From a virus (taxonomy: Duplodnaviria; Heunggongvirae; Uroviricota; Caudoviricetes): 25,592 nucleotides of DNA. The stretch covers positions 1 to 25,592 of the IMG/VR virus record IMGVR_UViG_2547132281_000002, one strand, 5' to 3'. Under the pieces are notes generated by a model. That model was not told the DNA's origin and ran no database searches. It saw nothing but the letters and a program-made list of their open reading frames with translations. The position numbers and the translations under genes were made by a program. This document shows positions 122-24,174 of the stretch, piece by piece (the stretch's first letter is position 1; every line of letters begins with the position of its first letter).

Positions 122-701
122 AAACTTCAGGTATTACAGGCCACTCAATATCAGGTGCAGTTGATGTATCAACACGGTTCAGCAACACCCGATACTTTTT
201 CCAGGCTTCCAGCAATGAGGTTTCTTCCTCCGTTGCGATTTCCAGATCTACAGCATCCTGAAGTGGCGCAATATGCTCACTGGCTACCTGCATCAGGCTG
301 TTTTTTGTTTCTTCCGCCTCCCGGATCCGGAACAGTTTTTCTGCTTCTGCATCTTTCACCCAGGCTGTGCCGTTCCACTTCTGAAACTCCCCTTCCGGCG
401 ATAACCAGGTAACATTTTCCGGTAATGAGCCGAGTTCAGAAATAAATAATGCGTCGCCGGAAGCCACGTCATAAACCGTTTTACCCCGATGATCTTCAAC
501 GAGATGCCACGATGACTCATCACTGTTGAAAACAGCCACGAAGCCAGCCGGAATATCTGGCGGTGCAATATAGGTACTGTTTGCTGGCAGACCTGTATGA
601 GGCGGAATATATGCGTCACCTTCACCAATAAATTCATTAGTTCCGGCCAGCAGATTATAAATTTTTATGGTCCGTGGTTGTTCACTCATTCTGAATGCCA
701 T
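120..701 (-). CDS. tfa: Tail fiber assembly protein Tfa (lambda Tfa / DLP12 TfaD-like), 193 aa
   Basis: Translation [24 protein letters not shown]... matches lambda Tfa as I recall it. Its ATG overlaps the stop of the upstream stf fragment (TAATG), as in lambda stf-tfa. Confidence 0.9.
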
Positions 702-7620: not shown

Positions 7621-7623
7621 GTA

Positions 7624-8007
7624 TTAATTAGAGTTATTAACAACGATATCCATCTCTAACCGGATATCTAATGCCATTAACATCCCTTCAATTATGCCCT
7701 CAGCCTTCTGTAACCTTTTCCCGATATAACCATCAGAGCAGCAATGCTTACCTGCCAGTGACATGAATGTCATACCGACTACATAATAATCTACTAATAA
7801 ATCGTGCAAATCGCTGTTGTTCTTTTTCAGACGGGCCATGCACCCGCAAATGATCATCGCGTCATCGTCACAACATTGCGGGCGAGATTTTACTTTTGAA
7901 GTAATTAATCCCTTAAAACCGGCGGCAATGGACGACCAGGTCACATCTTCATGATTATTAGCCGCCCACGCTCCCCAACGCTCAAGAACCATCTGAATAT
8001 CACGCAT
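7624..8007 (-). CDS. quuD: Late-gene antiterminator Q (DLP12 QuuD-like), 127 aa
   Basis: [62 protein letters not shown].... Last gene of the nin-Q block. An alternative upstream ATG lies at 8022. Confidence 0.8.
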
Positions 8008-8092
8008 CAACTTACTCCACAAAAATCAGACCAGAACGCCAATTACAAGCAAAAATCAACGAAACAGTATTAGTTGATTGTTATCTCTGACT

Positions 8093-10937: not shown

Positions 10938-12464
10938 TCAAAAATAAACCTCACCATCAACCATATATTTGAGAGTACTTATCGCCTGCTGGGCGGATAT
11001 TGTTTTCATTAAAGGATAGTGTTTAAAAACAATGCCATTCATAAAATAGATATCACAGGTTTTATTATCTGTATTGATTATGATTTTTTCGAATGTTTTA
11101 TAGGCAAGTGTACGACATAGCTCTCGCCCATTTTTACTGTTTAAGTCAATAGCATGAAAATCACCAAGTGAACTCACCGCTTTACTCTTCAAAGTTTTTA
11201 ATGATACAGAAGCCCTTCGTAATTCCTTATCTAATACTCTGATTTTTTCTGCTATAGCGGTAACTTCAGGCGCAACAGATAATGCAGCAATTAAATTATT
11301 AATTTTCATCTGGAGCTCAATAATTTTCAACTCTAAAGTTTCATTAGCATCTTTCTTGTTTTCAACTGGTTGGATTTTACTACAATTAAAAAGCAACTCA
11401 TTAATGATATTATAATCAACCAAATCTCTCTTTATTGATGGCCTGTCACATCGATGCAGTCTTCTCATCGGACAAACATAATAGCCATGCAAACTTCCAG
11501 ATACCGCATGAACAATCATGGTATTACCACAAGCCTCGCACTTCATAACTGTTCGAAGTAGATTTATCAACATAGGATTTTTGCTACTATTGCTAATACC
11601 AAAAGGTGCCAACCGAATTTCCTGTACAGCGTAAAACAAATCATCTGATATGACTCTGGGATAATAGCCAGCGATTTCACTTATTCCTTTACCTCTTGCA
11701 CGATATGAAGGTACGCATATACCTATCAGAGCTTTATTCGCTAATAATTTTTCAATTACAGAAGGTCCCCATGCACTTTCTTTTCCTGAGAAATTCTTTA
11801 CAGCATGATCATTTAAATACTTGGCTATTGCATTCAATGAGCGCCTTTCCATCCTGAGTTTAAAAATTAGCTCAATAGTTTTCACCCTGTCGGGGTCTGG
11901 AACAAAAGCCGTTCTTTTGTCATCTAAGGAGAGCCATCTCGGACAAGACGCCGTCATAATCGTACCTGATTCCAGTGCATCCTGCCGTTTTTTCTTCCAT
12001 GATAATTTAACCCGACTTGACTTTATCTCGCTTTCTTCATTTGCCCTTTGTGCTATAAGTATGGCTTTTATTAATGAATATGGCTCATTCAAAGAGTCAA
12101 TATTATAGACTGTATTGTCGCAAAGAGTTATAACATCAATACCGTGATTCAAAATCAATTTCAGACGTTCAATCGCTTCACCGACTTTTTCTCTTGAAAG
12201 TCTGTCCAGACTTTCAACTAACAATGTAGTTCCTGGCAATATATAACCATGCTCTATAGCATCTAAAAATTCCGAAAAAGCTCCTGATTGTGCATGCTTT
12301 CCTTTGAATGCACTTAATCCTAAATCTTCATATGTTATGGTATCAAGATAATAATCACTATTTACCTTTAACCATTCAGCAATAAGTCTTCTCTGTCGGT
12401 TTAATGAGTCGCCAGACATCTGACCTGGTGATGAAAATCGCATATATGCTATGGCTTTTTTCAT
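10938..12464 (-). CDS. ybcK: Large serine recombinase (DLP12 YbcK-like), 508 aa
   Basis: N-terminal resolvase-like MKKAIAYMRFSSPGQMSGDSLNRQRRLIAEW... with catalytic Ser in the YxRxSS context. Central recombinase region, a Cys-rich zinc-ribbon-like stretch (CEACGN...CPMRRLHRC) and a coiled-coil tail. Strongly AT-rich. Confidence 0.85.
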   Translation of the reverse strand: MKKAIAYMRFSSPGQMSGDSLNRQRRLIAEWLKVNSDYYLDTITYEDLGLSAFKGKHAQSGAFSEFLDAIEHGYILPGTTLLVESLDRLSREKVGEAIERLKLILNHGIDVITLCDNTVYNIDSLNEPYSLIKAILIAQRANEESEIKSSRVKLSWKKKRQDALESGTIMTASCPRWLSLDDKRTAFVPDPDRVKTIELIFKLRMERRSLNAIAKYLNDHAVKNFSGKESAWGPSVIEKLLANKALIGICVPSYRARGKGISEIAGYYPRVISDDLFYAVQEIRLAPFGISNSSKNPMLINLLRTVMKCEACGNTMIVHAVSGSLHGYYVCPMRRLHRCDRPSIKRDLVDYNIINELLFNCSKIQPVENKKDANETLELKIIELQMKINNLIAALSVAPEVTAIAEKIRVLDKELRRASVSLKTLKSKAVSSLGDFHAIDLNSKNGRELCRTLAYKTFEKIIINTDNKTCDIYFMNGIVFKHYPLMKTISAQQAISTLKYMVDGEVYF

Positions 12465-12720: not shown

Positions 12721-13053
12721 TTAATGTGGTGTGCTTCGTGACAATAAATTAATAACCAACACACCGGCACAAATCAACATCATGCCTATAATGGCTGGCA
12801 GGTCCAGCCGTTGGCCGAAAAGTCCCCATGACAGTAAGCTAATCAGGACAATACCGACTCCTGACCAGATAGCATAAGCAATCCCTGTAGGAATATAAGC
12901 CAGCGTCTGAGCTAATAACCAGAATGATGCACAATAACAAATAATTGTACCAACAGATGGCCATAACCGTGTAAAACCTTCTGAAAACTTCATTAAGGTT
13001 GTACCAATGACCTCTGCAAGTATTGCACCACCAAGATAAATATAAGGGTTCAT
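12721..13053 (-). CDS. emrE: Small multidrug resistance (SMR) efflux transporter EmrE, 110 aa
   Basis: MNPYIYLGGAILAEVIGTTLMKFSEGFTRLWPSVGTIICYCASFWLLAQTLAYIPTGIAYAIWSGVGIVLISLLSWG... matches EmrE from memory, including the conserved membrane Glu in the first helix. Confidence 0.9.
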   Translation of the reverse strand: MNPYIYLGGAILAEVIGTTLMKFSEGFTRLWPSVGTIICYCASFWLLAQTLAYIPTGIAYAIWSGVGIVLISLLSWGLFGQRLDLPAIIGMMLICAGVLVINLLSRSTPH

Positions 13054-13120
13054 AGAATATTCTTTCCTGTTCAAACTGGAGAGAATTGTACTACAGTTTG
13101 AACTCAACTCACCTGTTTCA

Positions 13121-14121: not shown

Positions 14122-15047
14122 AAATCCACCCCGTAAATCCAGTCAGTGTTTGTCAGGTCGAGTTTTGGTTTGCTGGCTATCATGCCTGCCTGTTGCTTGT
14201 TACGGTTGATTTCGAGTTGGGTCCACTTGTCGCGGAGTTTGGCCGGACTTAGCACGTTACCGGACCAGAAGTTGTCCTGGCATGCCCAGCGGAAAAGCAC
14301 GCACATGTCGCGGTGGTTACGTCCGTCACGTTCACGCATCAGGCGGATATCGTTAGCCCACCCTGCAAAATTCGGTTTTCTGGCTGATGGTGCGATGGTC
14401 TTCACCATGTCAAACATCCACTCTGCGGCGGTCAGGTCTTCTGCTGTCCCCCACTTGCTGCCGCTCTGAATTGCAGCATCTGGTTTCACCACAGGAAGAT
14501 CGTTTTCTGGTTGGTCAGAGGATTCGCCAGAATTCTCGGACGAAAAAGGTTTTATATTGTCTTTTGTTAGTTTGTCTTTTGTGTTTACCTGATTCGGGTA
14601 AACGCCTTTACCTGATTTGGGTAAACTTTTCTTACCTGATTCAGGTAAATTTACCTCTTTCAGGTAAACTTTATTTTTCTTACCTGATTCGGGTAATGTT
14701 GACCATTCACTGACCACATTATTAATACCGATATTCCGCCCGCTCTGAATCAAAATCCCACGCTTTACCAGAACACTTTTTGCAGCAGAACACTTGTGCG
14801 GTAATATCCCGGTCAATCCGGACAGTTGCTCGTTGCTCACCCAATCCAGTTTTTTATTAAAGCCATATGTTTTGCGCATGACAGCCAGGAAGACCAGAAG
14901 CTGGTGCTGTGTTAATCCGGCCAGCATCACAGCTTCCAGCAACTCATTTGCAATGCGCGTATAACCATCATCGAGATCTGCCACGCGCGGCTCCTTTTGT
15001 GCCGCATCCGGCACTGGAAAATTGAATATCTCAGCAGTGTTTGCCAT
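14118..15047 (-). CDS. O: Replication initiator O-like protein (non-lambda specificity), 309 aa from the RBS-preceded ATG
   Basis: MANTAEIFNFPVPDAAQKEPRVADLDDGYTRIANELLEAV... shares the lambda O N-terminal motif VADLDDGY. Repeated LPESGKK peptides are encoded by the iterons. GGGAGG lies 5 nt before the ATG at 15047. Overlaps the P start (ATGA). Confidence 0.8.
   Translation of the reverse strand: MANTAEIFNFPVPDAAQKEPRVADLDDGYTRIANELLEAVMLAGLTQHQLLVFLAVMRKTYGFNKKLDWVSNEQLSGLTGILPHKCSAAKSVLVKRGILIQSGRNIGINNVVSEWSTLPESGKKNKVYLKEVNLPESGKKSLPKSGKGVYPNQVNTKDKLTKDNIKPFSSENSGESSDQPENDLPVVKPDAAIQSGSKWGTAEDLTAAEWMFDMVKTIAPSARKPNFAGWANDIRLMRERDGRNHRDMCVLFRWACQDNFWSGNVLSPAKLRDKWTQLEINRNKQQAGMIASKPKLDLTNTDWIYGVDL
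14584..14698. repeat. ori: Replication origin: five about 19-bp iterons (consensus TTACCTGATTCGGGTAA) inside the O gene, flanked by an AT-rich tract
   Basis: tttacctgattcgggtaaac, tttacctgatttgggtaaac, cttacctgattcaggtaaat, ttacctctttcaggtaaac and cttacctgattcgggtaatg, each an internal inverted repeat. AT-rich tract at 14540-14583. Confidence 0.75.
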
Positions 15048-15133: not shown

Positions 15134-15673
15134 TCATATCGCCCCCAGCATGGTAGTAACCATCGCCATCAATGGACCAGCCAGATCTGGGTCCACACGA
15201 AACATCGATACAATACCTTCACTAATTTCCTTCAGTTTCTGGTGGCGTGGTGCGTTGAGAATGACAGCCTGTTTTGCCTCACTGAGTTCCTTTTCCATTT
15301 CAGCCAACCTGGCCATGAAGCTATCCTGCTCAACCAGGTAACCGCGATATTCCAGCGGTAGTACCGCCAGAATTGCCGGGGTCAGTTCACGCACGTTATT
15401 TCGGTATTTTTCAGAATCGAATTTGTTATCGAGGAAGCGGAACAGCTTCTGGCGTGCACGGCTGACATCATCAGGGAAATCGATGGTGCCGCCGCCCTGC
15501 TCCCGATACTCATTCACAATGAGTGTGGCAACGACATCCTGATTATCTACAGCCGACCAGGCGCGGACGGCATCACGGATTTTTTCGTGGCCTGGCACCT
15601 GTTTTGTTTGAGAACGATTTATCACCGCAGTCGGGCTAAATCCGCTAGTCTGTTGGTATGGAAGTGGTTGCAT
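15134..15673 (-). CDS. ydaT: YdaT-like protein (Rac-type ydaS/ydaT module) at the cII position, 179 aa
   Basis: ...VNEYREQGGGTIDFPDD...VRELTPAILAVLPLEYRG... resembles Rac YdaT as I recall it (EEYLRQGGGE...IPAILAILPRELR). RBS AAGGAG upstream. Confidence 0.55.
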   Translation of the reverse strand: MQPLPYQQTSGFSPTAVINRSQTKQVPGHEKIRDAVRAWSAVDNQDVVATLIVNEYREQGGGTIDFPDDVSRARQKLFRFLDNKFDSEKYRNNVRELTPAILAVLPLEYRGYLVEQDSFMARLAEMEKELSEAKQAVILNAPRHQKLKEISEGIVSMFRVDPDLAGPLMAMVTTMLGAI

Positions 15674-15721
15674 AATTGACTCCTTTAGTTTGAATTGACT
15701 GTTAAGTTGATTGCTTATTGT

Positions 15722-15730
15722 TAAAGAGCG
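15722..15730 (-). promoter_or_regulatory. boxA-like element (CGCTCTTTA) about 15 nt downstream of the cro-like stop, the nutR position
   Basis: The minus strand reads ...CACGCTCTTTAACAATAAG..., an exact match to the boxA consensus CGCTCTTTA. No boxB-like hairpin follows. Confidence 0.35.
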
Positions 15731-15742
15731 TGAAATGGAAAT

Positions 15743-15973
15743 TTAAGCTGCGTTCTTTTCGGTGTGTGGAAACAACTTCGGAAGATCCGGGCGAATCTGG
15801 TATGCCTTCACTACTCCACCAGTAGCCGTAACAATGCTGCCGACATGTTCAGGGGATACCTTTGCTTTGTTGTGAAGCCACTTATAGACGGCCTGCTGTG
15901 AAACTTCGCAAGCAGCGCCCAGTTTCTTTTGTGAACCAACGATATTGATCGCTGTTTTGATAGCTGGGTTCAT
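15743..15973 (-). CDS. cro: Cro-like HTH regulator (YdaS/Cro family), 76 aa
   Basis: MNPAIKTAINIVGSQKKLGAACEVSQQAVYKWLHNKAKVSPEHV... has a helix-turn-helix and is divergent from the repressor. GGAGG lies 7 nt before the ATG. Confidence 0.7.
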   Translation of the reverse strand: MNPAIKTAINIVGSQKKLGAACEVSQQAVYKWLHNKAKVSPEHVGSIVTATGGVVKAYQIRPDLPKLFPHTEKNAA

Positions 15974-16077
15974 AACAACCTCCGTGGTTAATTTGAATCA
16001 AGATTAAAACTATGGTTGTTTTTAGTCAACAACCATTTTCGTTTGATGGAATAAAACCTTGGTTGTACATTTGGACT
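15974..16077. promoter_or_regulatory. Divergent operator/promoter region (oR, pR, pRM analogue) between cro-like and cI
   Basis: A 104-bp interval with repeated ACAACC/GGTTGT half-sites, for example ATGGTTGT-N9-ACAACCAT at 16011-16035 and AACCTTGGTTGT at 16057-16068. Confidence 0.55.
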
Positions 16078-16767
16078 ATGAAAACAACACTCTCAGAAAG
16101 ACTTAAAGAAGCCAGATTAGCGCGAGGCCTTACACAAAAGGCGCTTGGGGATTTGGTCGGGGTTAGCCAGGCTGCTATTCAGAAAATCGAAACAGGGAAA
16201 GCTAATCAAACAACTAAAATCGTGGAGATCGCGAACGCTTTGGGTGTGCGCGCAGAATGGTTATCTTCTGGCGTTGGAAATATGTCAGACAGTACAGTGC
16301 AACCAATACAATCAACTGTCAGCCATTCCAAATACTTCAAGATTGACGTTCTTGATATAGAAGTCAGTGCTGGGCCGGGAGTCATCAACCGTGAGTTTGT
16401 AGAAGTTCTACGCTCGGTTGAGTACTCGTTTGACGATGCTCGTCACATGTTCGATGGTAGGAAGGCGGAAAATATCCGCATCATTAACGTGCGTGGTGAC
16501 AGCATGTCAGGAACGATCGAACCAGGTGATCTGCTGTTCGTTGATATCACAGTTAAATCTTTCGACGGTGATGGTATCTATGCGTTTCTGTACGACGACA
16601 CAGCCCATGTAAAGCGCCTGCAAATGATGAAGGATAAGCTGCTGGTCATCTCTGATAACAAAAGCTACTCACCGTGGGACCCGATCGAGAAAGACGAGAT
16701 GAACCGGGTGTTCATCTTCGGTAAGGTTATTGGGAGCATGCCGCAGACATATAGGAAGCATGGGTAG
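16078..16767 (+). CDS. cI: CI-type prophage repressor: N-terminal HTH (XRE) plus C-terminal LexA-like S24 autopeptidase, 229 aa from the internal ATG
   Basis: MKTTLSERLKEARLARGLTQKALGDLVGVSQAAIQKIETGK... (HTH), then ...INVRGDSMSGTIEPGDLLFVD...HVKRLQ... (Ser/Lys dyad motifs). The ORF track's upstream start at 16012 overlaps the operators. Confidence 0.85.
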   Translation: MKTTLSERLKEARLARGLTQKALGDLVGVSQAAIQKIETGKANQTTKIVEIANALGVRAEWLSSGVGNMSDSTVQPIQSTVSHSKYFKIDVLDIEVSAGPGVINREFVEVLRSVEYSFDDARHMFDGRKAENIRIINVRGDSMSGTIEPGDLLFVDITVKSFDGDGIYAFLYDDTAHVKRLQMMKDKLLVISDNKSYSPWDPIEKDEMNRVFIFGKVIGSMPQTYRKHG

Positions 16768-16888
16768 TACCAATTAAAAATTATCAACTGGGCATTGTGC
16801 TCATTCAGTAAAGAACTAATTCCTATCTTTGCTCTAGGTAGTAATATTAAGCCACCGCAATAATATCTTTACCTAACGGCGTAAGAAT

Positions 16889-16915
16889 CCCGGTCACCGT
16901 GCCGGGTTTTCTTTT
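16889..16915 (+). terminator. Rho-independent terminator after cI
   Basis: Stem cccgg ... ccggg followed by ttttcttttg. Confidence 0.5.
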
Positions 16916-17039
16916 GCCCTCCCCTCATCACACACACCGTTAAAAAAACCACCATAACCTCGCTTCAGTTATCGCTATGCGATTCAAGTCACAAAATAAA
17001 TCCATCCTAAATACAACCAGTTATATCTAAAACAACCAA

Positions 17040-17100
17040 TAAAACAACTTTTGTTGTTGACGATAAAACAACTATAGTTTTAAATAAGTTCATCGCAACA
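17040..17100 (+). promoter_or_regulatory. Candidate pL/oL: promoter-like hexamers with operator-like ACAAC/GTTGT repeats
   Basis: ...aaaacaaccaataaaacaacttttgttgTTGACGataaaacaactatagttttaaataag... shares half-site motifs with the cI-cro intergenic region. Confidence 0.4.
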
Positions 17101-17362
17101 ACACAACGATACGGCAACTACCTGATTCACCGTTGCGATGACCGCTTAGATCCGCAGTTTGAATTTCAGCAGGCTTCGGGGAGTGCGAGGGGTGAAACGG
17201 ACGCGTGAACGTCGGTGTGACCAGCTGAAATTAACTCAACATTTCATACCTCAGTCGCTTCAACGAGGCGGCTTAGTTATGACAACCGGCGGCCATCCAC
17301 CGCCTGAATATGCGCAGAAGTCTCTATATGTTCAGCAGCCCAGCTTACGGGCAGGAGTTTTT

Positions 17363-17569
17363 ATGGTTCATCAACATTACGGAACACAGACCGTTAATCG
17401 CGGCGCGGTCATGCCAGGAATGCTGGTCAAACACAAAGATGGTACCTGGACTGCATCAGCTAATTTACGCGGACGGCTTTATCTGCATCGCGGCATCGAG
17501 CGCACTTATACCAGTGATTTGCTCGTGGAAGTTTTTCTCGACGGACGCGGTAACGGCCTGAATCACTAA
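17363..17569 (+). CDS. kil: Kil-like host cell-division inhibitor (Rac KilR-like), 68 aa
   Basis: MVHQHYGTQTVNRGAVMPGMLVKHKDGTWTASANLRGRLYLHRGIERTYTSDLLVEVFLDGRGNGLNH. AGGAG lies 6 nt before the ATG. The pattern HxxGT...PG..V.H..G....ASAN...VFL..G matches my recollection of KilR. It is the first gene of the leftward operon, immediately upstream of gam. Confidence 0.5.
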   Translation: MVHQHYGTQTVNRGAVMPGMLVKHKDGTWTASANLRGRLYLHRGIERTYTSDLLVEVFLDGRGNGLNH

Positions 17570-17645
17570 CCCCCCTTTCCTGTTTTCCTAATCAGCCTGG
17601 CATTTCGCGGGCGATATTTTCACAGCCATTTTCAGGAGTTCAGCC

Positions 17646-17942
17646 ATGAACGCTTATTACATTCAGGATCGTCTTGAGGCTCAGAGCTGGGCGCGTCACT
17701 ACCAGCAGCTCGCCCGTGAAGAGAAAGAGGCAGAACTGGCAGACGACATGGAAAAAAGCCTGCCCCAGCACCTGTTTGAATCGCTATGCATCGATCATTT
17801 GCAACGCCACGGGGCCAGCAAAAAAGCCATTACCCGTGCGTTTGATGACGATGTTGAGTTTCAGGAGCGCATGGCAGAACACATCCGGTACATGGTTGAA
17901 ACCATTGCTCACCACCAGGTTGATATTGATTCAGAGGTATAA
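17646..17942 (+). CDS. gam: Gam (RecBCD inhibitor), short 98-aa form
   Basis: [98 protein letters not shown] is near-identical to lambda Gam. Confidence 0.95.
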
Positions 17943-17947
17943 AACGG

Positions 17948-18733
17948 ATGAGTACAGCACTCGCAACGCTGGCTGGGAAGCTGGCTGAACGTGTCGGCAT
18001 GGATTCTGTCAACCCACAGGAACTGATCACCACTCTTCGCCAGACGGCATTTAAAGGTGATGCCAGCGATGCGCAGTTCATCGCATTGTTGATCGTCGCC
18101 AACCAGTACGGCCTTAATCCGTGGACGAAAGAAATTTACGCCTTCCCTGACAAGCAGAACGGCATCGTTCCGGTGGTGGGCGTTGATGGCTGGTCCCGTA
18201 TCATCAATGAAAACCAGCAGTTTGATGGCATGGACTTTGAGCAGGACAATGAATCATGTACATGCCGGATTTACCGCAAGGACCGTAATCATCCGATCTG
18301 CGTTACCGAGTGGATGGATGAATGCCGCCGCGAACCATTCAAAACCCGCGAAGGCAGAGAAATCACGGGGCCGTGGCAGTCGCATCCCAAACGGATGTTA
18401 CGGCATAAAGCCATGATTCAGTGTGCCCGTCTCGCCTTCGGATTTGCTGGTATCTATGACAAGGATGAAGCCGAGCGCATTGTCGAAAATACCGCATACA
18501 CTGCAGAACGTCAGCCGGAACGCGACATCACTCCGGTTAACGATGAAACCATGCAGGAGATTAACACTCTGCTGATCGCCCTGGATAAAACATGGGATGA
18601 CGACTTATTGCCGCTCTGTTCCCAGATATTTCGCCGCGACATTCGCGCATCGTCAGAACTGACACAGGCCGAAGCAGTGAAAGCTCTTGGATTCCTGAAA
18701 CAGAAAGCCACTGAGCAGAAGGTGGCAGCATGA
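17948..18733 (+). CDS. bet: Bet (Red-beta single-strand annealing protein), 261 aa
   Basis: [69 protein letters not shown]... is near-identical to lambda Bet. Confidence 0.95.
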
Positions 18734-19410
18734 CACCGGACATTATCCTGCAGCGTACCGGGATCGACGTGAGAGCTGTCGAACAGGGGGATGATGCATG
18801 GCACAAATTACGGCTCGGCGTCATCACCGCTTCAGAAGTTCACAACGTGATAGCAAAGCCCCGCTCAGGAAAGAAGTGGCCTGACATGAAAATGTCCTAC
18901 TTCCACACCCTGCTGGCTGAGGTTTGCACCGGTGTGGCTCCGGAAGTTAATGCTAAGGCGCTGGCCTGGGGAAAACAGTACGAGAACGACGCCAGAACCC
19001 TGTTTGAATTCACTTCCGGCGTGAATATTACTGAATCCCCGATCATCTATCGCGACGAAAATATGCGCACCGCCTGCTCTCCCGATGGTTTATGCAGTGA
19101 CGGCAACGGCCTTGAACTGAAATGCCCGTTTACCTCCCGGGATTTCATGAAATTCCGGCTCGGTGGTTTCGAGGCAATAAAATCGGCTTACATGGCCCAG
19201 GTGCAGTACAGCATGTGGGTGACGCGAAAAGATGCCTGGTACTTTGCCAACTATGACCCGCGCATGAAGCGTGAAGGCCTGCATTATGTCGTGATTGAGC
19301 GGAATGAAAAGTACATGGCGAGTTTTGACGAGATGGTGCCGGAGTTCATCGAAAAAATGGACGAGGCACTGGCTGAAATTGGTTTTGTATTTGGGGAGCA
19401 ATGGCGATGA
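18730..19410 (+). CDS. exo: Exo (Red-alpha 5'-3' exonuclease), 226 aa
   Basis: [65 protein letters not shown]... is near-identical to lambda Exo. Overlaps the bet stop (ATGA). Confidence 0.95.
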
Positions 19411-19589
19411 CGCATCCTCACGATAATATCCGGGTAGGCGCGATCACTTTCGTCTACTCCGTTACAAAGCGAGGCTGGGTATTTCCCGGCCTTTCTGTTA
19501 TCCAAAATCCACTGAAAGCCCAGCGGCTGGCTGAGGAGATAAATAATAAACGAGGGGCTGTATGCACAAAGCATCTCCCGTTGAGTTAA
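19401..19589 (+). CDS. Lambda orf60a-like small protein (DUF1317-like), 62 aa
   Basis: [58 protein letters not shown].... Conserved position after exo, recalled from lambda. Confidence 0.6.
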
Positions 19590-19753
19590 GAACGAGTATC
19601 GAGATGGCACATAGCCTCGCTCAAATTGGAGTCAGGTTTGTGCCAATACCAGTAGAAACAGACGAAGAATTTCACACGTTAGCCGCATCCCTTTCACAAA
19701 AGCTGGAAATGATGGTGGCGAAAGCAGAAGCAGATGAGAGAGACCAGGTATGA
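19562..19753 (+). CDS. Lambda orf63-like small protein (DUF1382-like), 63 aa
   Basis: [63 protein letters not shown]. Confidence 0.6.
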   Translation: MHKASPVELRTSIEMAHSLAQIGVRFVPIPVETDEEFHTLAASLSQKLEMMVAKAEADERDQV

Positions 19754-19833
19754 CAACCACTGAATGCATTTTTCTGGCAGCGGGCTTCATATTCTGTGTG
19801 CTTATGCTTGCCGACATGGGACTTGTTCAATGA
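19750..19833 (+). CDS. 27-aa hydrophobic micro-protein (putative single-pass membrane peptide)
   Basis: MTTTECIFLAAGFIFCVLMLADMGLVQ. ATGA overlap with the upstream gene and ATGA overlap with the downstream gene suggest translational coupling. Confidence 0.4.
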   Translation: MTTTECIFLAAGFIFCVLMLADMGLVQ

Positions 19834-20065: not shown

Positions 20066-20090
20066 AGGGAGCTACAGGCTCCTTTTTTAT
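20066..20090 (+). terminator. Rho-independent terminator inside the leftward operon
   Basis: Stem ggagc/gctcc with loop tacag followed by tttttt. Confidence 0.55.
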
Positions 20091-20143
20091 TATTCGCATT
20101 CACCCTCAAGCGTATTAACCAACAATTCAGGGATTAATGGAAG

Positions 20144-22618: not shown

Positions 22619-22664
22619 TTCTTAGCATAAAGCAACTACTGCCTTTGGTGAAAATTATATCTGA

Positions 22665-22688
22665 ACTCGCTACGGCGAGTTTTTTTTA
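22665..22688 (+). terminator. Rho-independent terminator after the 142-aa gene
   Basis: Stem actcgc/gcgagt with loop tacg followed by tttttttt. Confidence 0.65.
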
Positions 22689-22868
22689 TGGAGATGATAA
22701 ATGCACTTCCGAGTCACAGGTGAATAGAATGGAGAACCATTCAACAGAGTTATCGAAGCCGAGAACATCAGCGACTGCTATGACCACTGGATGCTGTGGG
22801 CGCAGATAGCACATGCAGACGTAACCAATATTCGAATTGAAGAACTGAAAGAACACCAAGCCGCCTGA

Positions 22869-22890
22869 TGGCGGTTTTTTCTTGCGTGTA
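22869..22890 (+). terminator. Rho-independent terminator upstream of xis, in a lambda-derived segment
   Basis: Stem gccgcc/ggcgg with loop tgat followed by tttttt. The surrounding sequence matches the lambda region just upstream of xis from memory. Confidence 0.6.
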
Positions 22891-22907: not shown

Positions 22908-23126
22908 ATGTACTTGACACTTCAGGAGTGGAACGCTCGCCAGCGACGCCCAAGAAGCCTTGAAACAGTTCGTCGATGGGTGCGCGAATGCAGGATATTC
23001 CCTCCTCCGGTTAAGGATGGAAGAGAATATCTGTTCCACGAATCAGCGGTAAAGGTTGACTTAAATCGACCAGTAACAGGTAGCCTTTTGAAGAGGATCA
23101 GAAATGGGAAGAAGGCGAAGTCATGA
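22908..23126 (+). CDS. xis: Excisionase Xis, 72 aa
   Basis: MYLTLQEWNARQRRPRSLETVRRWVRECRIFPPPVKDGREYLFHESAVKVDLNRPVTGSLLKRIRNGKKAKS matches lambda Xis. The 3' end overlaps the int start. Confidence 0.95.
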   Translation: MYLTLQEWNARQRRPRSLETVRRWVRECRIFPPPVKDGREYLFHESAVKVDLNRPVTGSLLKRIRNGKKAKS

Positions 23127-24174
23127 GCGCCGGGATTTACCCCCTAACCTTTATATAAGAAACAATGGATATTACTGCTACAGGGACCCAAGGACGGGTA
23201 AAGAGTTTGGATTAGGCCGAGACAGGCGAATCGCAATCACTGAAGCTATACAGGCCAACATTGAGTTATTTTCAGGACACAAACACAAGCCTCTGACAGC
23301 GAGAATCAACAGTGATAATTCCGTTACGTTACATTCATGGCTTGATCGCTACGAAAAAATCCTGGCCAGCAGAGGAATCAAGCAGAAGACACTCATAAAT
23401 TACATGAGCAAAATTAAAGCAATAAGGAGGGGTCTGCCTGATGCTCCACTTGAAGACATCACCACAAAAGAAATTGCGGCAATGCTCAATGGATACATAG
23501 ACGAGGGCAAGGCGGCGTCAGCCAAGTTAATCAGATCAACACTGAGCGATGCATTCCGAGAGGCAATAGCTGAAGGCCATATAACAACAAACCCTGTCGC
23601 TGCCACTCGCGCAGCAAAATCAGAGGTAAGGAGATCAAGACTTACGGCTGACGAATACCTGAAAATTTATCAAGCAGCAGAATCATCACCATGTTGGCTC
23701 AGACTTGCAATGGAACTGGCTGTTGTTACCGGGCAACGAGTTGGTGATTTATGCGAAATGAAGTGGTCTGATATCGTAGATGGATATCTTTATGTCGAGC
23801 AAAGCAAAACAGGCGTAAAAATTGCCATCCCAACAGCATTGCATGTTGATGCTCTCGGAATATCAATGAAGGAAACACTTGATAAATGCAAAGAGATTCT
23901 TGGCGGAGAAACCATAATTGCATCTACTCGTCGCGAACCGCTTTCATCCGGCACAGTATCAAGGTATTTTATGCGCGCACGAAAAGCATCAGGTCTTTCC
24001 TTCGAAGGGGATCCGCCTACCTTTCACGAGTTGCGCAGTTTGTCTGCAAGACTCTATGAGAAGCAGATAAGCGATAAGTTTGCTCAACATCTTCTCGGGC
24101 ATAAGTCGGACACCATGGCATCACAGTATCGTGATGACAGAGGCAGGGAGTGGGACAAAATTGAAATCAAATAA
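23104..24174 (+). CDS. int: Tyrosine integrase Int, 356 aa
   Basis: MGRRRSHERRDLPPNLYIRNNGYYCYRDPRTGKEFGLGRDRRIAITEAIQANIELFSGHK...HELRSLSARLYEKQISDKFAQHLLGHKSDTMASQYRDDRGREWDKIEIK matches lambda Int. Confidence 0.95.
   Translation: MGRRRSHERRDLPPNLYIRNNGYYCYRDPRTGKEFGLGRDRRIAITEAIQANIELFSGHKHKPLTARINSDNSVTLHSWLDRYEKILASRGIKQKTLINYMSKIKAIRRGLPDAPLEDITTKEIAAMLNGYIDEGKAASAKLIRSTLSDAFREAIAEGHITTNPVAATRAAKSEVRRSRLTADEYLKIYQAAESSPCWLRLAMELAVVTGQRVGDLCEMKWSDIVDGYLYVEQSKTGVKIAIPTALHVDALGISMKETLDKCKEILGGETIIASTRREPLSSGTVSRYFMRARKASGLSFEGDPPTFHELRSLSARLYEKQISDKFAQHLLGHKSDTMASQYRDDRGREWDKIEIK

Follow-up and report, generated by a model that had tools for sequence, protein, structure and literature searches.

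Organization of the leftward early region

The window analyzed here is a stretch of 25,592 nucleotides (nt) from a virus of the class Caudoviricetes (IMG/VR record IMGVR_UViG_2547132281_000002). It represents a lambdoid prophage, a relative of lambda, in which the leftward operon is read on the plus strand. This report concerns the interval between the repressor gene and gam (16768-17645), which holds the leftward early promoter pL, the leader of the pL transcript and kil, and the question of how transcription initiated there reaches xis and int in a prophage that lacks N. A distance of about 880 base pairs (bp) from the cI stop codon to gam had been given in a first-pass annotation, and the interval indeed measures 878 bp (between 16767 and 17646).

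The genes that follow the repressor gene on the plus strand are, in order, kil, gam, bet, exo, orf60a/63/61, a TraR/Orf73 homologue, an Ea22-like gene, xis and a lambda-type int. The minus strand carries homologues of cro and cII, after which come O, P, the nin genes and Q (7624-8022, minus strand). The leftward genes have the makeup of a lambdoid pL operon, with a repressor-controlled promoter and operators common to oR, followed by kil-gam-bet-exo and eventually xis-int. Inverted repeats are likewise common to the oR and oL regions. In phages Turner, PhiR47_2 and IdasGreatGrand, homologues of the repressor carry the annotation CI. The landmarks of the region are as follows.

15134-15673, minus strand: cII homologue, YdaT-like
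15718-15730, minus strand: boxA of consensus sequence (CGCUCUUUAACAA), located between cro and cII in the pR transcript and lacking a boxB
15743-15973, minus strand: cro homologue, YdaS-like
16012-16767, plus strand: CI-like repressor with HTH_3 and peptidase S24 domains (Pfam), whose stop at 16767 is the left edge of the interval
17030-17085, plus strand: oL operators (AAAACAAC repeats, also found at oR) and pL, with -35 TTGACG (17057-17062), a 17-nt spacer and -10 TTAAAT (17080-17085)
17363-17569, plus strand: kil, encoding a phi80-type cell-division inhibitor of 68 amino acids, the first gene of the pL operon (PHROG 294, 1.9e-38)
17646-17942, plus strand: gam (Pfam Gam, 4e-64)
22908-24174, plus strand: xis (22908-23126) and int (23104-24174) of lambda type (Pfam Exc and lambda-integrase arm domain), in a region about 97% identical to lambda

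Much of the operon is lambda DNA. Positions 17563-19758 of the window are collinear with lambda 33193-31000 at 97.5% identity, and the xis-proximal DNA is also that of lambda. Homology with lambda begins abruptly at 17563, just before the kil stop codon (17567-17569), and this position is the recombination joint between a phi80-type kil module and lambda gam. Missing is the 2.4-kb block of lambda that contains N, sieB, ral, ea10, cIII and kil, including nutL, in place of which the window has 470 bp consisting of the leader and the phi80-type kil.

The untranslated leader of the pL transcript

Three immunity types with unrelated operators were found among viral contigs that carry this kil. In two of the three, the -10 hexamer ends six bases before the same sequence, (A/G)TCGCAAC, so that the conserved leader starts at the probable +1; in the third immunity type the replacement extends into the leader and takes in its first 34 nt. 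From this arrangement the pL transcript of the window would start at A17092. The true start of kil is the ATG at 17363, rather than a start at 17279 or 17159. RefSeq annotation of O157:H7 relatives places the start at this ATG. Five other genera (Kluyvera, Citrobacter, Silvania, Enterobacter and Pseudocitrobacter) retain the ATG and a GGAG-type Shine-Dalgarno sequence but not the upstream frame. Indels also occur between 17279 and 17363 in several E. coli variants. With kil starting at 17363 and a conserved +1, the leader would be an untranslated RNA of 271 nt (17092 to 17363), the parts of which are listed below.

17092-17139, plus strand: 5' hairpin of the pL transcript (an inverted repeat), pairing over 8 bp in the RNA around a C-rich loop of 32 nt
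17142-17241, plus strand: G-rich central segment, private to the E. coli lineage, containing the Arg-rich TTG frame; fold z-score -0.08, no Rfam or put match
17244-17282, plus strand: hairpin C, an interrupted stem of 16 bp in which a GAGG Shine-Dalgarno sequence (17266-17269) and AUG 17279 are buried
17288-17304, plus strand: hairpin D (GGCGG-CCATCCA-CCGCC), the invariant partner of hairpin C, with an HK639 counterpart in a stretch annotated as a terminator
17306-17362, plus strand: leader tail and translation-initiation region of kil (hairpin GCCC..GGGC, then AGGAG); nucleotide diversity 0.010, the most constrained non-coding stretch

Nucleotide diversity was calculated from 69 distinct sequences chosen through the Kil protein, and stop codons and indels were counted in 66 distinct leader variants. 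The Kil-alignment scan of viral contigs returned only near-identical E. coli loci and was suited to measuring diversity, not to finding distant leaders. The leader as a whole folds with a z-score of -1.37. An inverted repeat that had been noted at the 5' end is present (TCATCGCAAC at 17090-17099 and GTTGCGATGA at 17132-17141), but its stability does not exceed that of shuffled sequences (-8.6 kcal/mol, z -1.16, with 25 of 200 shuffles folding as well). Changes in the arms of this hairpin in relatives are wobble-compatible (AU/GU, CG/UG), and the frequent polymorphisms in the predicted stems all preserve pairing or wobble, with no double compensatory change among them. Diversity is 0.049 in the arms and 0.086 in the loop, compared with 0.047-0.051 at third codon positions of kil and gam. 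The central segment has a diversity of 0.041-0.049 (0.041 for 17140-17203), as against 0.015 in a constrained core of 19 nt at 17204-17222; hairpins C and D have a diversity of 0.040. Most of the 5' domain therefore drifts almost freely, while the 19-nt core and the kil ribosome-binding region are held. The first 78 nt have only a mildly Rho-utilization-like composition (C/G 1.47). No second copy of the leader domain was found on the pR side. The loop of the 5' hairpin contains TACCTGATTCA (17119-17129), an 11-nt match to half of an origin iteron in the O gene (five iterons, 14584-14698); the match is probably due to chance, as most relatives have C at 17119.

Hairpin C is of a different order of stability (-16.3 kcal/mol, z -4.72, none of 200 shuffles being as stable), and it is a genuine RNA structure. 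Its inner stem varies by whole pairs among relatives (AGUCGCUUC/GAGGCGGCU, AGCAACUUC/GAGGUUGCU, ACCGUUCUC/GAGUGCGGU, AACGGGUUC/GAGCCUGUU and GGCAGA/UCUGCC). Across 24 distinct sequences, 98.2% of the cells are paired and six pairs have changed on both sides, a result reached by none of 500 shuffles and approached by no slid register. The buried AUG 17279 opens a frame that begins MTTGGHPPP, after which the peptide diverges among relatives.

Terminators in the pL operon

Terminators within the operon had been proposed from the first pass, and three were found at 20066-20084, 22663-22682 and 22858-22877, each followed by a T run. All three hairpins are far more stable than shuffles (z -3.1, -3.4 and -2.7, respectively). 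A further hairpin, which was absent from the earlier list, lies within orf60a. With their T tails, these elements are as follows.

19471-19493, plus strand: GC-rich hairpin with a weak T tail inside orf60a; 50 of 51 bases match lambda 31298-31248
20066-20092, plus strand: strong intrinsic terminator between orf61 and the TraR/Orf73 homologue; 41/41 identical to lambda at about 30690
22663-22690, plus strand: strong intrinsic terminator after a DUF2513 gene; near-identical to lambda at about 29325 (J02459)
22858-22885, plus strand: strong intrinsic terminator 30 nt before xis; 46/46 identical to lambda at about 29130

Judged by these identities, the three strong terminators are lambda's own. 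The hairpin at 19471-19493 is probably lambda tL3, a terminator named in what has been published on plasmid pKD46. Of 67 relatives with this leader, 50 still have the terminator at 20066, as does 4A7, a viable phage without N.

In lambda, xis is made only from pL and these terminators are overridden with N, so the xis gene of the window lies behind terminators that lambda passes by means of N. Reliance on the promoter pI alone would give Int but not Xis. Read-through from pL would appear to be needed for expression of xis together with int. The rightward operon has no strong intrinsic terminator from cro to Q, which means that the essential rightward path needs no antiterminator.

Search for known antitermination elements

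The absence of an N-like open reading frame (ORF) from the interval, which had been claimed at the outset, was borne out, as no ORF of at least 20 amino acids on either strand of 16768-17645 matches an N family. Searches with Pfam and PHROG gave no N match for the ORFs of the interval or for 29 other ORFs of the window, and none was found among ten ORFs on the pR side and ten further ORFs, mostly on the pL side. A tblastn search of the whole window with lambda N gave nothing (best E 0.22, at an unrelated site). The sole long ORF of the interval is a frame of 136 amino acids beginning at a TTG; it has no Pfam match, and its 40-amino-acid head has no PHROG match. The frame had been described as open from TTG 17159 into kil, and it is open in this window, where it reads ...RGVRGVKRTRERR.... 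C17252T creates an in-frame TAG at codon 32 in 21 of the 66 leader variants. The frame is also interrupted by a 5-nt insertion in four variants, a 1-nt deletion in three and a 2-nt deletion in two, and R-to-W and G-to-E changes occur inside the Arg-rich motif. Its polymorphic sites are distributed 8:5:5 over the three codon positions with no third-position excess, and no Shine-Dalgarno sequence precedes it. Its richness in arginine is a side effect of the G/C-rich RNA segment that it crosses.

A boxA without boxB had been noted at the nutR position, and this proved correct. A perfect boxA (CGCTCTTTAACAA, 15718-15730, minus strand) lies 13 nt after the cro stop, and the 60 nt that follow are unfolded (-4.1 kcal/mol, z -0.06). 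It is the sole exact match in the window and is not a chance match; the rrn-type boxA (GCUCUUUAACAA) was found at this pR-side site and not in the pL leader, and no boxA within two mismatches occurs on the plus (pL) strand of the window. The element is present only in relatives of the same immunity type; 4A7, Perceval and an O157:H7 prophage share the leader but lack this boxA, which therefore cannot be a device general to the group. Its role may be a local one on the pR transcript, or it may be left over from a nutR.

Antitermination by put RNA in the N-less lambdoid phages HK639 and HK022 is attributed to King et al. 2011, as cited in PMC9378689. In HK022 the putL RNA begins at the transcription start, and mutagenesis has shown that the U28 of the stem I loop and a -10-like element at +23 to +28 are essential (PMC9378689). 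A covariance model was built from eight RNAs (HK022 putL and putR, HK639 putL, and five more put sequences found by blastn). It scored HK022 putL at 95.9 bits, putR at 51.4 bits and 15 further put-carrying contigs at 56-97 bits. The suggestion of an HK022 put-like RNA in the leader did not hold up: with filters off, the model found nothing in 17092-17362, and the best score in the window was 8.3 bits, at an unrelated site (7621-7695, minus strand). The two-stem put consensus (GAACGG..GUCGG..GGCGGGUUCAGGAUGAACGGCAAU) is not matched in the leader, and as read from the sequence the leader has no equivalent of the stem I loop. Twenty-eight columns of put are invariant across genera, and put loses its function when the zinc-binding domain of the RNA polymerase beta-prime subunit (rpoC) is mutated. 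The 5' end of the window leader and the motif CAGCAG..GCGAGGGG were considered as remnants of an HK639 leader and rejected, as blastn with 7-nt words gave only 9-mers (E 9.4) and shuffles often equaled the alignment scores. Matches to the ops element of the RfaH system (GGCGGTAGnnTG) were no more numerous than expected (14 at two or fewer mismatches versus 14.2), and none was on the plus strand of the leader. The interval matched no Rfam family, whether at the gathering threshold or with E values allowed up to 10.

Hairpin C/D and promoter-proximal cassettes in related phages

A block running from 17243 to about 17305 is also present, with 87-97% identity, in HK225, Enterobacter phage ENT1, HK639 and about 55 viral contigs; the Rfam scans gave no match to it. 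In phages outside the E. coli lineage, hairpin C usually has an intrinsic terminator immediately 5' of it. In HK225, hairpin C is located 1.3 kb from pL, just before kil, and in other phages the module and the tail adjoin kil or other first genes. A module that sits next to first genes and far from the promoter is likely to serve the downstream gene rather than a promoter-proximal polymerase.

HK639-like phages lack N, and their first ORFs include no N-like family. Their pL transcripts have a common 45-nt start that is followed by put (15 loci), by an ENT1-type cassette of about 190 nt (eight loci) or by an HK225-type cassette of 210-300 nt (17 loci). The latter two do not match the put model; at their start is a small hairpin, after which comes a boxA-like sequence (UGCUCAUUAAGAA / UGCUUUUUAACAA), an order also seen in rrn leaders. 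The loci used in these comparisons are given below by contig.

Hairpin C/D module: L005 (HK639) 33175-33104, minus strand; L144 (HK225) 2501-2563; L227 (ENT1) 2501-2560; L228-L282
HK639-like pL transcripts, 45-nt start and cassette: L005 34380-34190, minus strand; L227 1507-1790; L144 1246-1540; L233 6085-6240

In L233 and L281, put directly abuts hairpin C (the order in L233 being pL, put, hairpin C), and in the window that place is held by the 150-nt 5' domain. This parallel is an analogy of position and not evidence of function.

A proposed model without dedicated antitermination of pL

The reading we tentatively prefer, at a probability of roughly 0.45, is that pL has no dedicated antitermination and that xis and int depend on leak-through. 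Transcription from pL would not be processively antiterminated. The genes needed early (kil, gam, bet, exo and orf60a/63/61) would all be transcribed ahead of the first strong terminator, and rightward transcription would reach Q through a pR operon free of strong intrinsic terminators. The genes xis and int, which lie behind the three lambda-derived terminators, would be fed only by transcripts that leak through from a strong promoter, with pI supplying additional Int. The leader would act on the toxic kil message, governing its stability and its translation, and would not modify RNA polymerase.

Several observations argue for this model. No recognizable device was found in the form of N, put, an Rfam family, ops or a boxA on the pL strand. 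The 150 nt at the 5' end of the leader fold no better than shuffles and, except for about 20 nt, evolve at approximately the rate of third codon positions, unlike put. The first strong terminator of the pL operon follows the recombination genes, the pR operon has no strong one before Q, and the placement of hairpin C and the tail beside first genes in other phages ties them to the gene downstream. In addition, the 100% or near-100% identity of the terminators to those of lambda fits a recent exchange of modules rather than co-adaptation with the leader.

Other observations weigh against leak-through. Since most relatives, and 4A7, still have the 20066 terminator on the path from pL to xis, the whole group must get past it in order to excise. 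The conserved leader starts at the probable +1 in two of the three immunity types, as HK022 putL does (PMC9378689), and in close relatives of the shared module put holds the place of the 5' domain. The 19-nt core at 17204-17222 is clearly constrained. Finally, three strong terminators in series would allow very little read-through.

Alternative mechanisms

A less probable alternative is that 17092-17241 forms a cis-acting antiterminator RNA, unrelated in sequence to put, that carries its polymerase through to xis and int, with the ENT1- and HK225-type cassettes representing further classes. The points just listed against leak-through, apart from the last, speak for such an RNA, as do the layout of the HK639-like transcripts (common start, then one of three cassettes, then the same hairpin C/D module), the abutment of put and hairpin C in L233 and L281, and the pair-compatibility of the frequent stem polymorphisms. 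Position alone is weak evidence, however. The domain gives no thermodynamic signal (z -1.2 and -0.1), and its diversity is near the third-codon level across most of its length. It also lacks double compensatory changes, a counterpart on the pR side and any similarity to put beyond short motifs. An extension of this idea, which we consider unlikely, is that lambdoid pL operons without N have, next to the promoter, a slot in which cassettes can be swapped. The slot would be occupied by put or by one of at least three unrelated RNAs (the 150-nt E. coli domain and the ENT1 and HK225 types), each a distinct cis-acting class that would make RNA polymerase resistant to terminators, and hairpin C/D would be a further, undescribed regulatory RNA.

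It is quite improbable that read-through depends on a trans-acting factor that homology does not reveal, whether an unannotated small phage protein or host Nus factors recruited to a degenerate leader site, in which case the consensus boxA would serve pR. The perfect boxA at the nutR position favors this proposal, as do several small pL-operon ORFs of no assigned function and the boxA-like elements of the ENT1- and HK225-type leaders, since Nus-type sites thus do occur in N-less pL leaders. Counting against it are the lack of any boxA-like sequence on the pL strand of the window and of the pR-side boxA in heteroimmune relatives with the same leader, together with the location of every candidate ORF downstream of, or far from, the first required site of action. 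Moreover, the terminators are intrinsic, and rrn-type boxA complexes mainly counter Rho-dependent termination.

That 17190-17245 is a degenerate but active derivative of put is very improbable. Alignment by eye places window GAAACGGACGCG..CGUCGG..GUGUGACCAGCUGAA..CAA against put GAACGGCGCG..GCGUCGG..GGCGGGUUCAGGAUGAA..CAAU, with several put-invariant residues in register, and the lineage has its downstream module in common with put phages. The put covariance model with filters off gave no match of any score at 17190-17245, however, and both the invariant GGCGGG and the essential stem I loop, with its U28 and -10-like element (PMC9378689), are missing.

The proposal of a cryptic N-like peptide, in which a TTG- or GTG-initiated product from 17159 onward would be a minimal arginine-rich-motif protein acting alone or as a Kil fusion, is already largely refuted and scarcely credible: KRTRERR superficially resembles QTRRRERR of lambda N, the window has the frame uninterrupted as far as kil and one pipeline calls a 31-amino-acid ORF here in IdasGreatGrand, but stop codons, frameshifts, motif substitutions and the codon-position pattern described above, the conserved kil ATG of other genera without the upstream frame, and the lack of a Shine-Dalgarno sequence, a boxB-like target and any PHROG, Pfam or lambda N similarity all contradict it.

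Other features of the prophage

The repressor transcript has its own terminator.

16889-16916, plus strand: intrinsic terminator of the repressor transcript (CCCGGTCACCGTGCCGGG + TTTTCTTTTG); an identical hairpin is also found after the extra post-cI genes of relatives

Relatives of the same immunity type have two additional genes between cI and pL (1648-3076 of contig L001, compared with 16768-16810 of the window). The extra genes are annotated in PhiR47_2 as the toxin GevT and the antitoxin GevA, the latter being an ASCH-domain protein in RefSeq. An O157:H7 prophage has a SIR2-family gene at the post-cI site. The window has only the shared terminator and none of these genes.

Two genes in the nin region look like accessory genes (morons) within the pR operon. 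One encodes a serine recombinase/integrase-like protein of 508 amino acids (10938-12464, minus strand) and the other a QacE/EmrE-like member of the small multidrug-resistance family (12721-13107, minus strand). The sole Rfam match in the window at the gathering threshold is IS009 (160-358, minus strand, 229.5 bits), which lies near the left end beyond the lysis genes.

Relation to known systems and significance

Two early forms of processive antitermination are known in lambdoid phages, N/nut and put RNA. The window resembles the put phages HK639 and HK022 in that it is an N-less lambdoid with a conserved untranslated RNA at or near the +1 of pL and intrinsic terminators downstream, and it has the hairpin C/D module in common with HK639 and 15 put-carrying contigs. 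The leader occupies the promoter-proximal position of put, and the resemblance is one of layout only. Unlike put phages, the window has neither the sequence nor the structure of put in its leader, the 5' domain shows weak constraint and no detectable structure, and nothing comparable occurs on the pR side. With the N/nut system of lambda it shares an operon of lambda DNA from gam to int with the same terminators, as well as a consensus boxA at the nutR position, whereas N, nutL and a boxB at either site are lacking and the 2.4-kb N-to-kil block is replaced. The boxA of the pR transcript perfectly fits the rrn-like consensus, but in contrast to rrn-type antitermination it occurs on the pR side only and in this immunity type only, with none in the pL leader. 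The YdaS-like cro, the YdaT-like cII and a division inhibitor as the first leftward gene place the immunity region near those of CP-933P/Sp12 and Rac (PMC8630535). The study of the YdaS/YdaT switch describes no N and addresses the repressor switch, not the control of elongation (PMC8630535). Unlike the prophages of the CP-933P/Sp12 and Rac studies, the operon of the window continues into intact lambda recombination and excision modules.

The leader is common. Among 5426 complete E. coli genomes, 2225 (about 40%) carry it with an identity of at least 95%, and no annotated feature lies beneath it there. It is also found in isolated phages that include Turner, PhiR34_1, PhiR47_2, IdasGreatGrand, 4A7, Lambda_4C10 and Perceval, none of which has an annotated N. 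Lambdoid phages without N have been noted before, with put suggested by default, as for phage LLS (PMC12315714). The literature on N-less lambda-like phages (genus Bievrevirus), GevT/GevA, prophage small RNAs and tL3 yielded no study of how elongation is controlled in this group. The first-pass annotation of the locus stands in part, its lack of N and its terminators being real, while the put-like RNA and the N-like peptide by which read-through was to be explained are not borne out.

What remains is a type of leader that has neither N/nut nor put and yet is common in E. coli and in plaque-forming phages, upstream of lambda's own terminators. The covarying hairpin at 17244-17282 is an RNA motif in its own right, unmatched in the Rfam scans made here. 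If the leader is an antiterminator, it would be an unrecognized device, and the alternative cassettes at the position of put would point to several. If leak-through is the true state of affairs, common prophages would excise without antitermination of pL, and the textbook requirement for it in the expression of xis would have to be revised.

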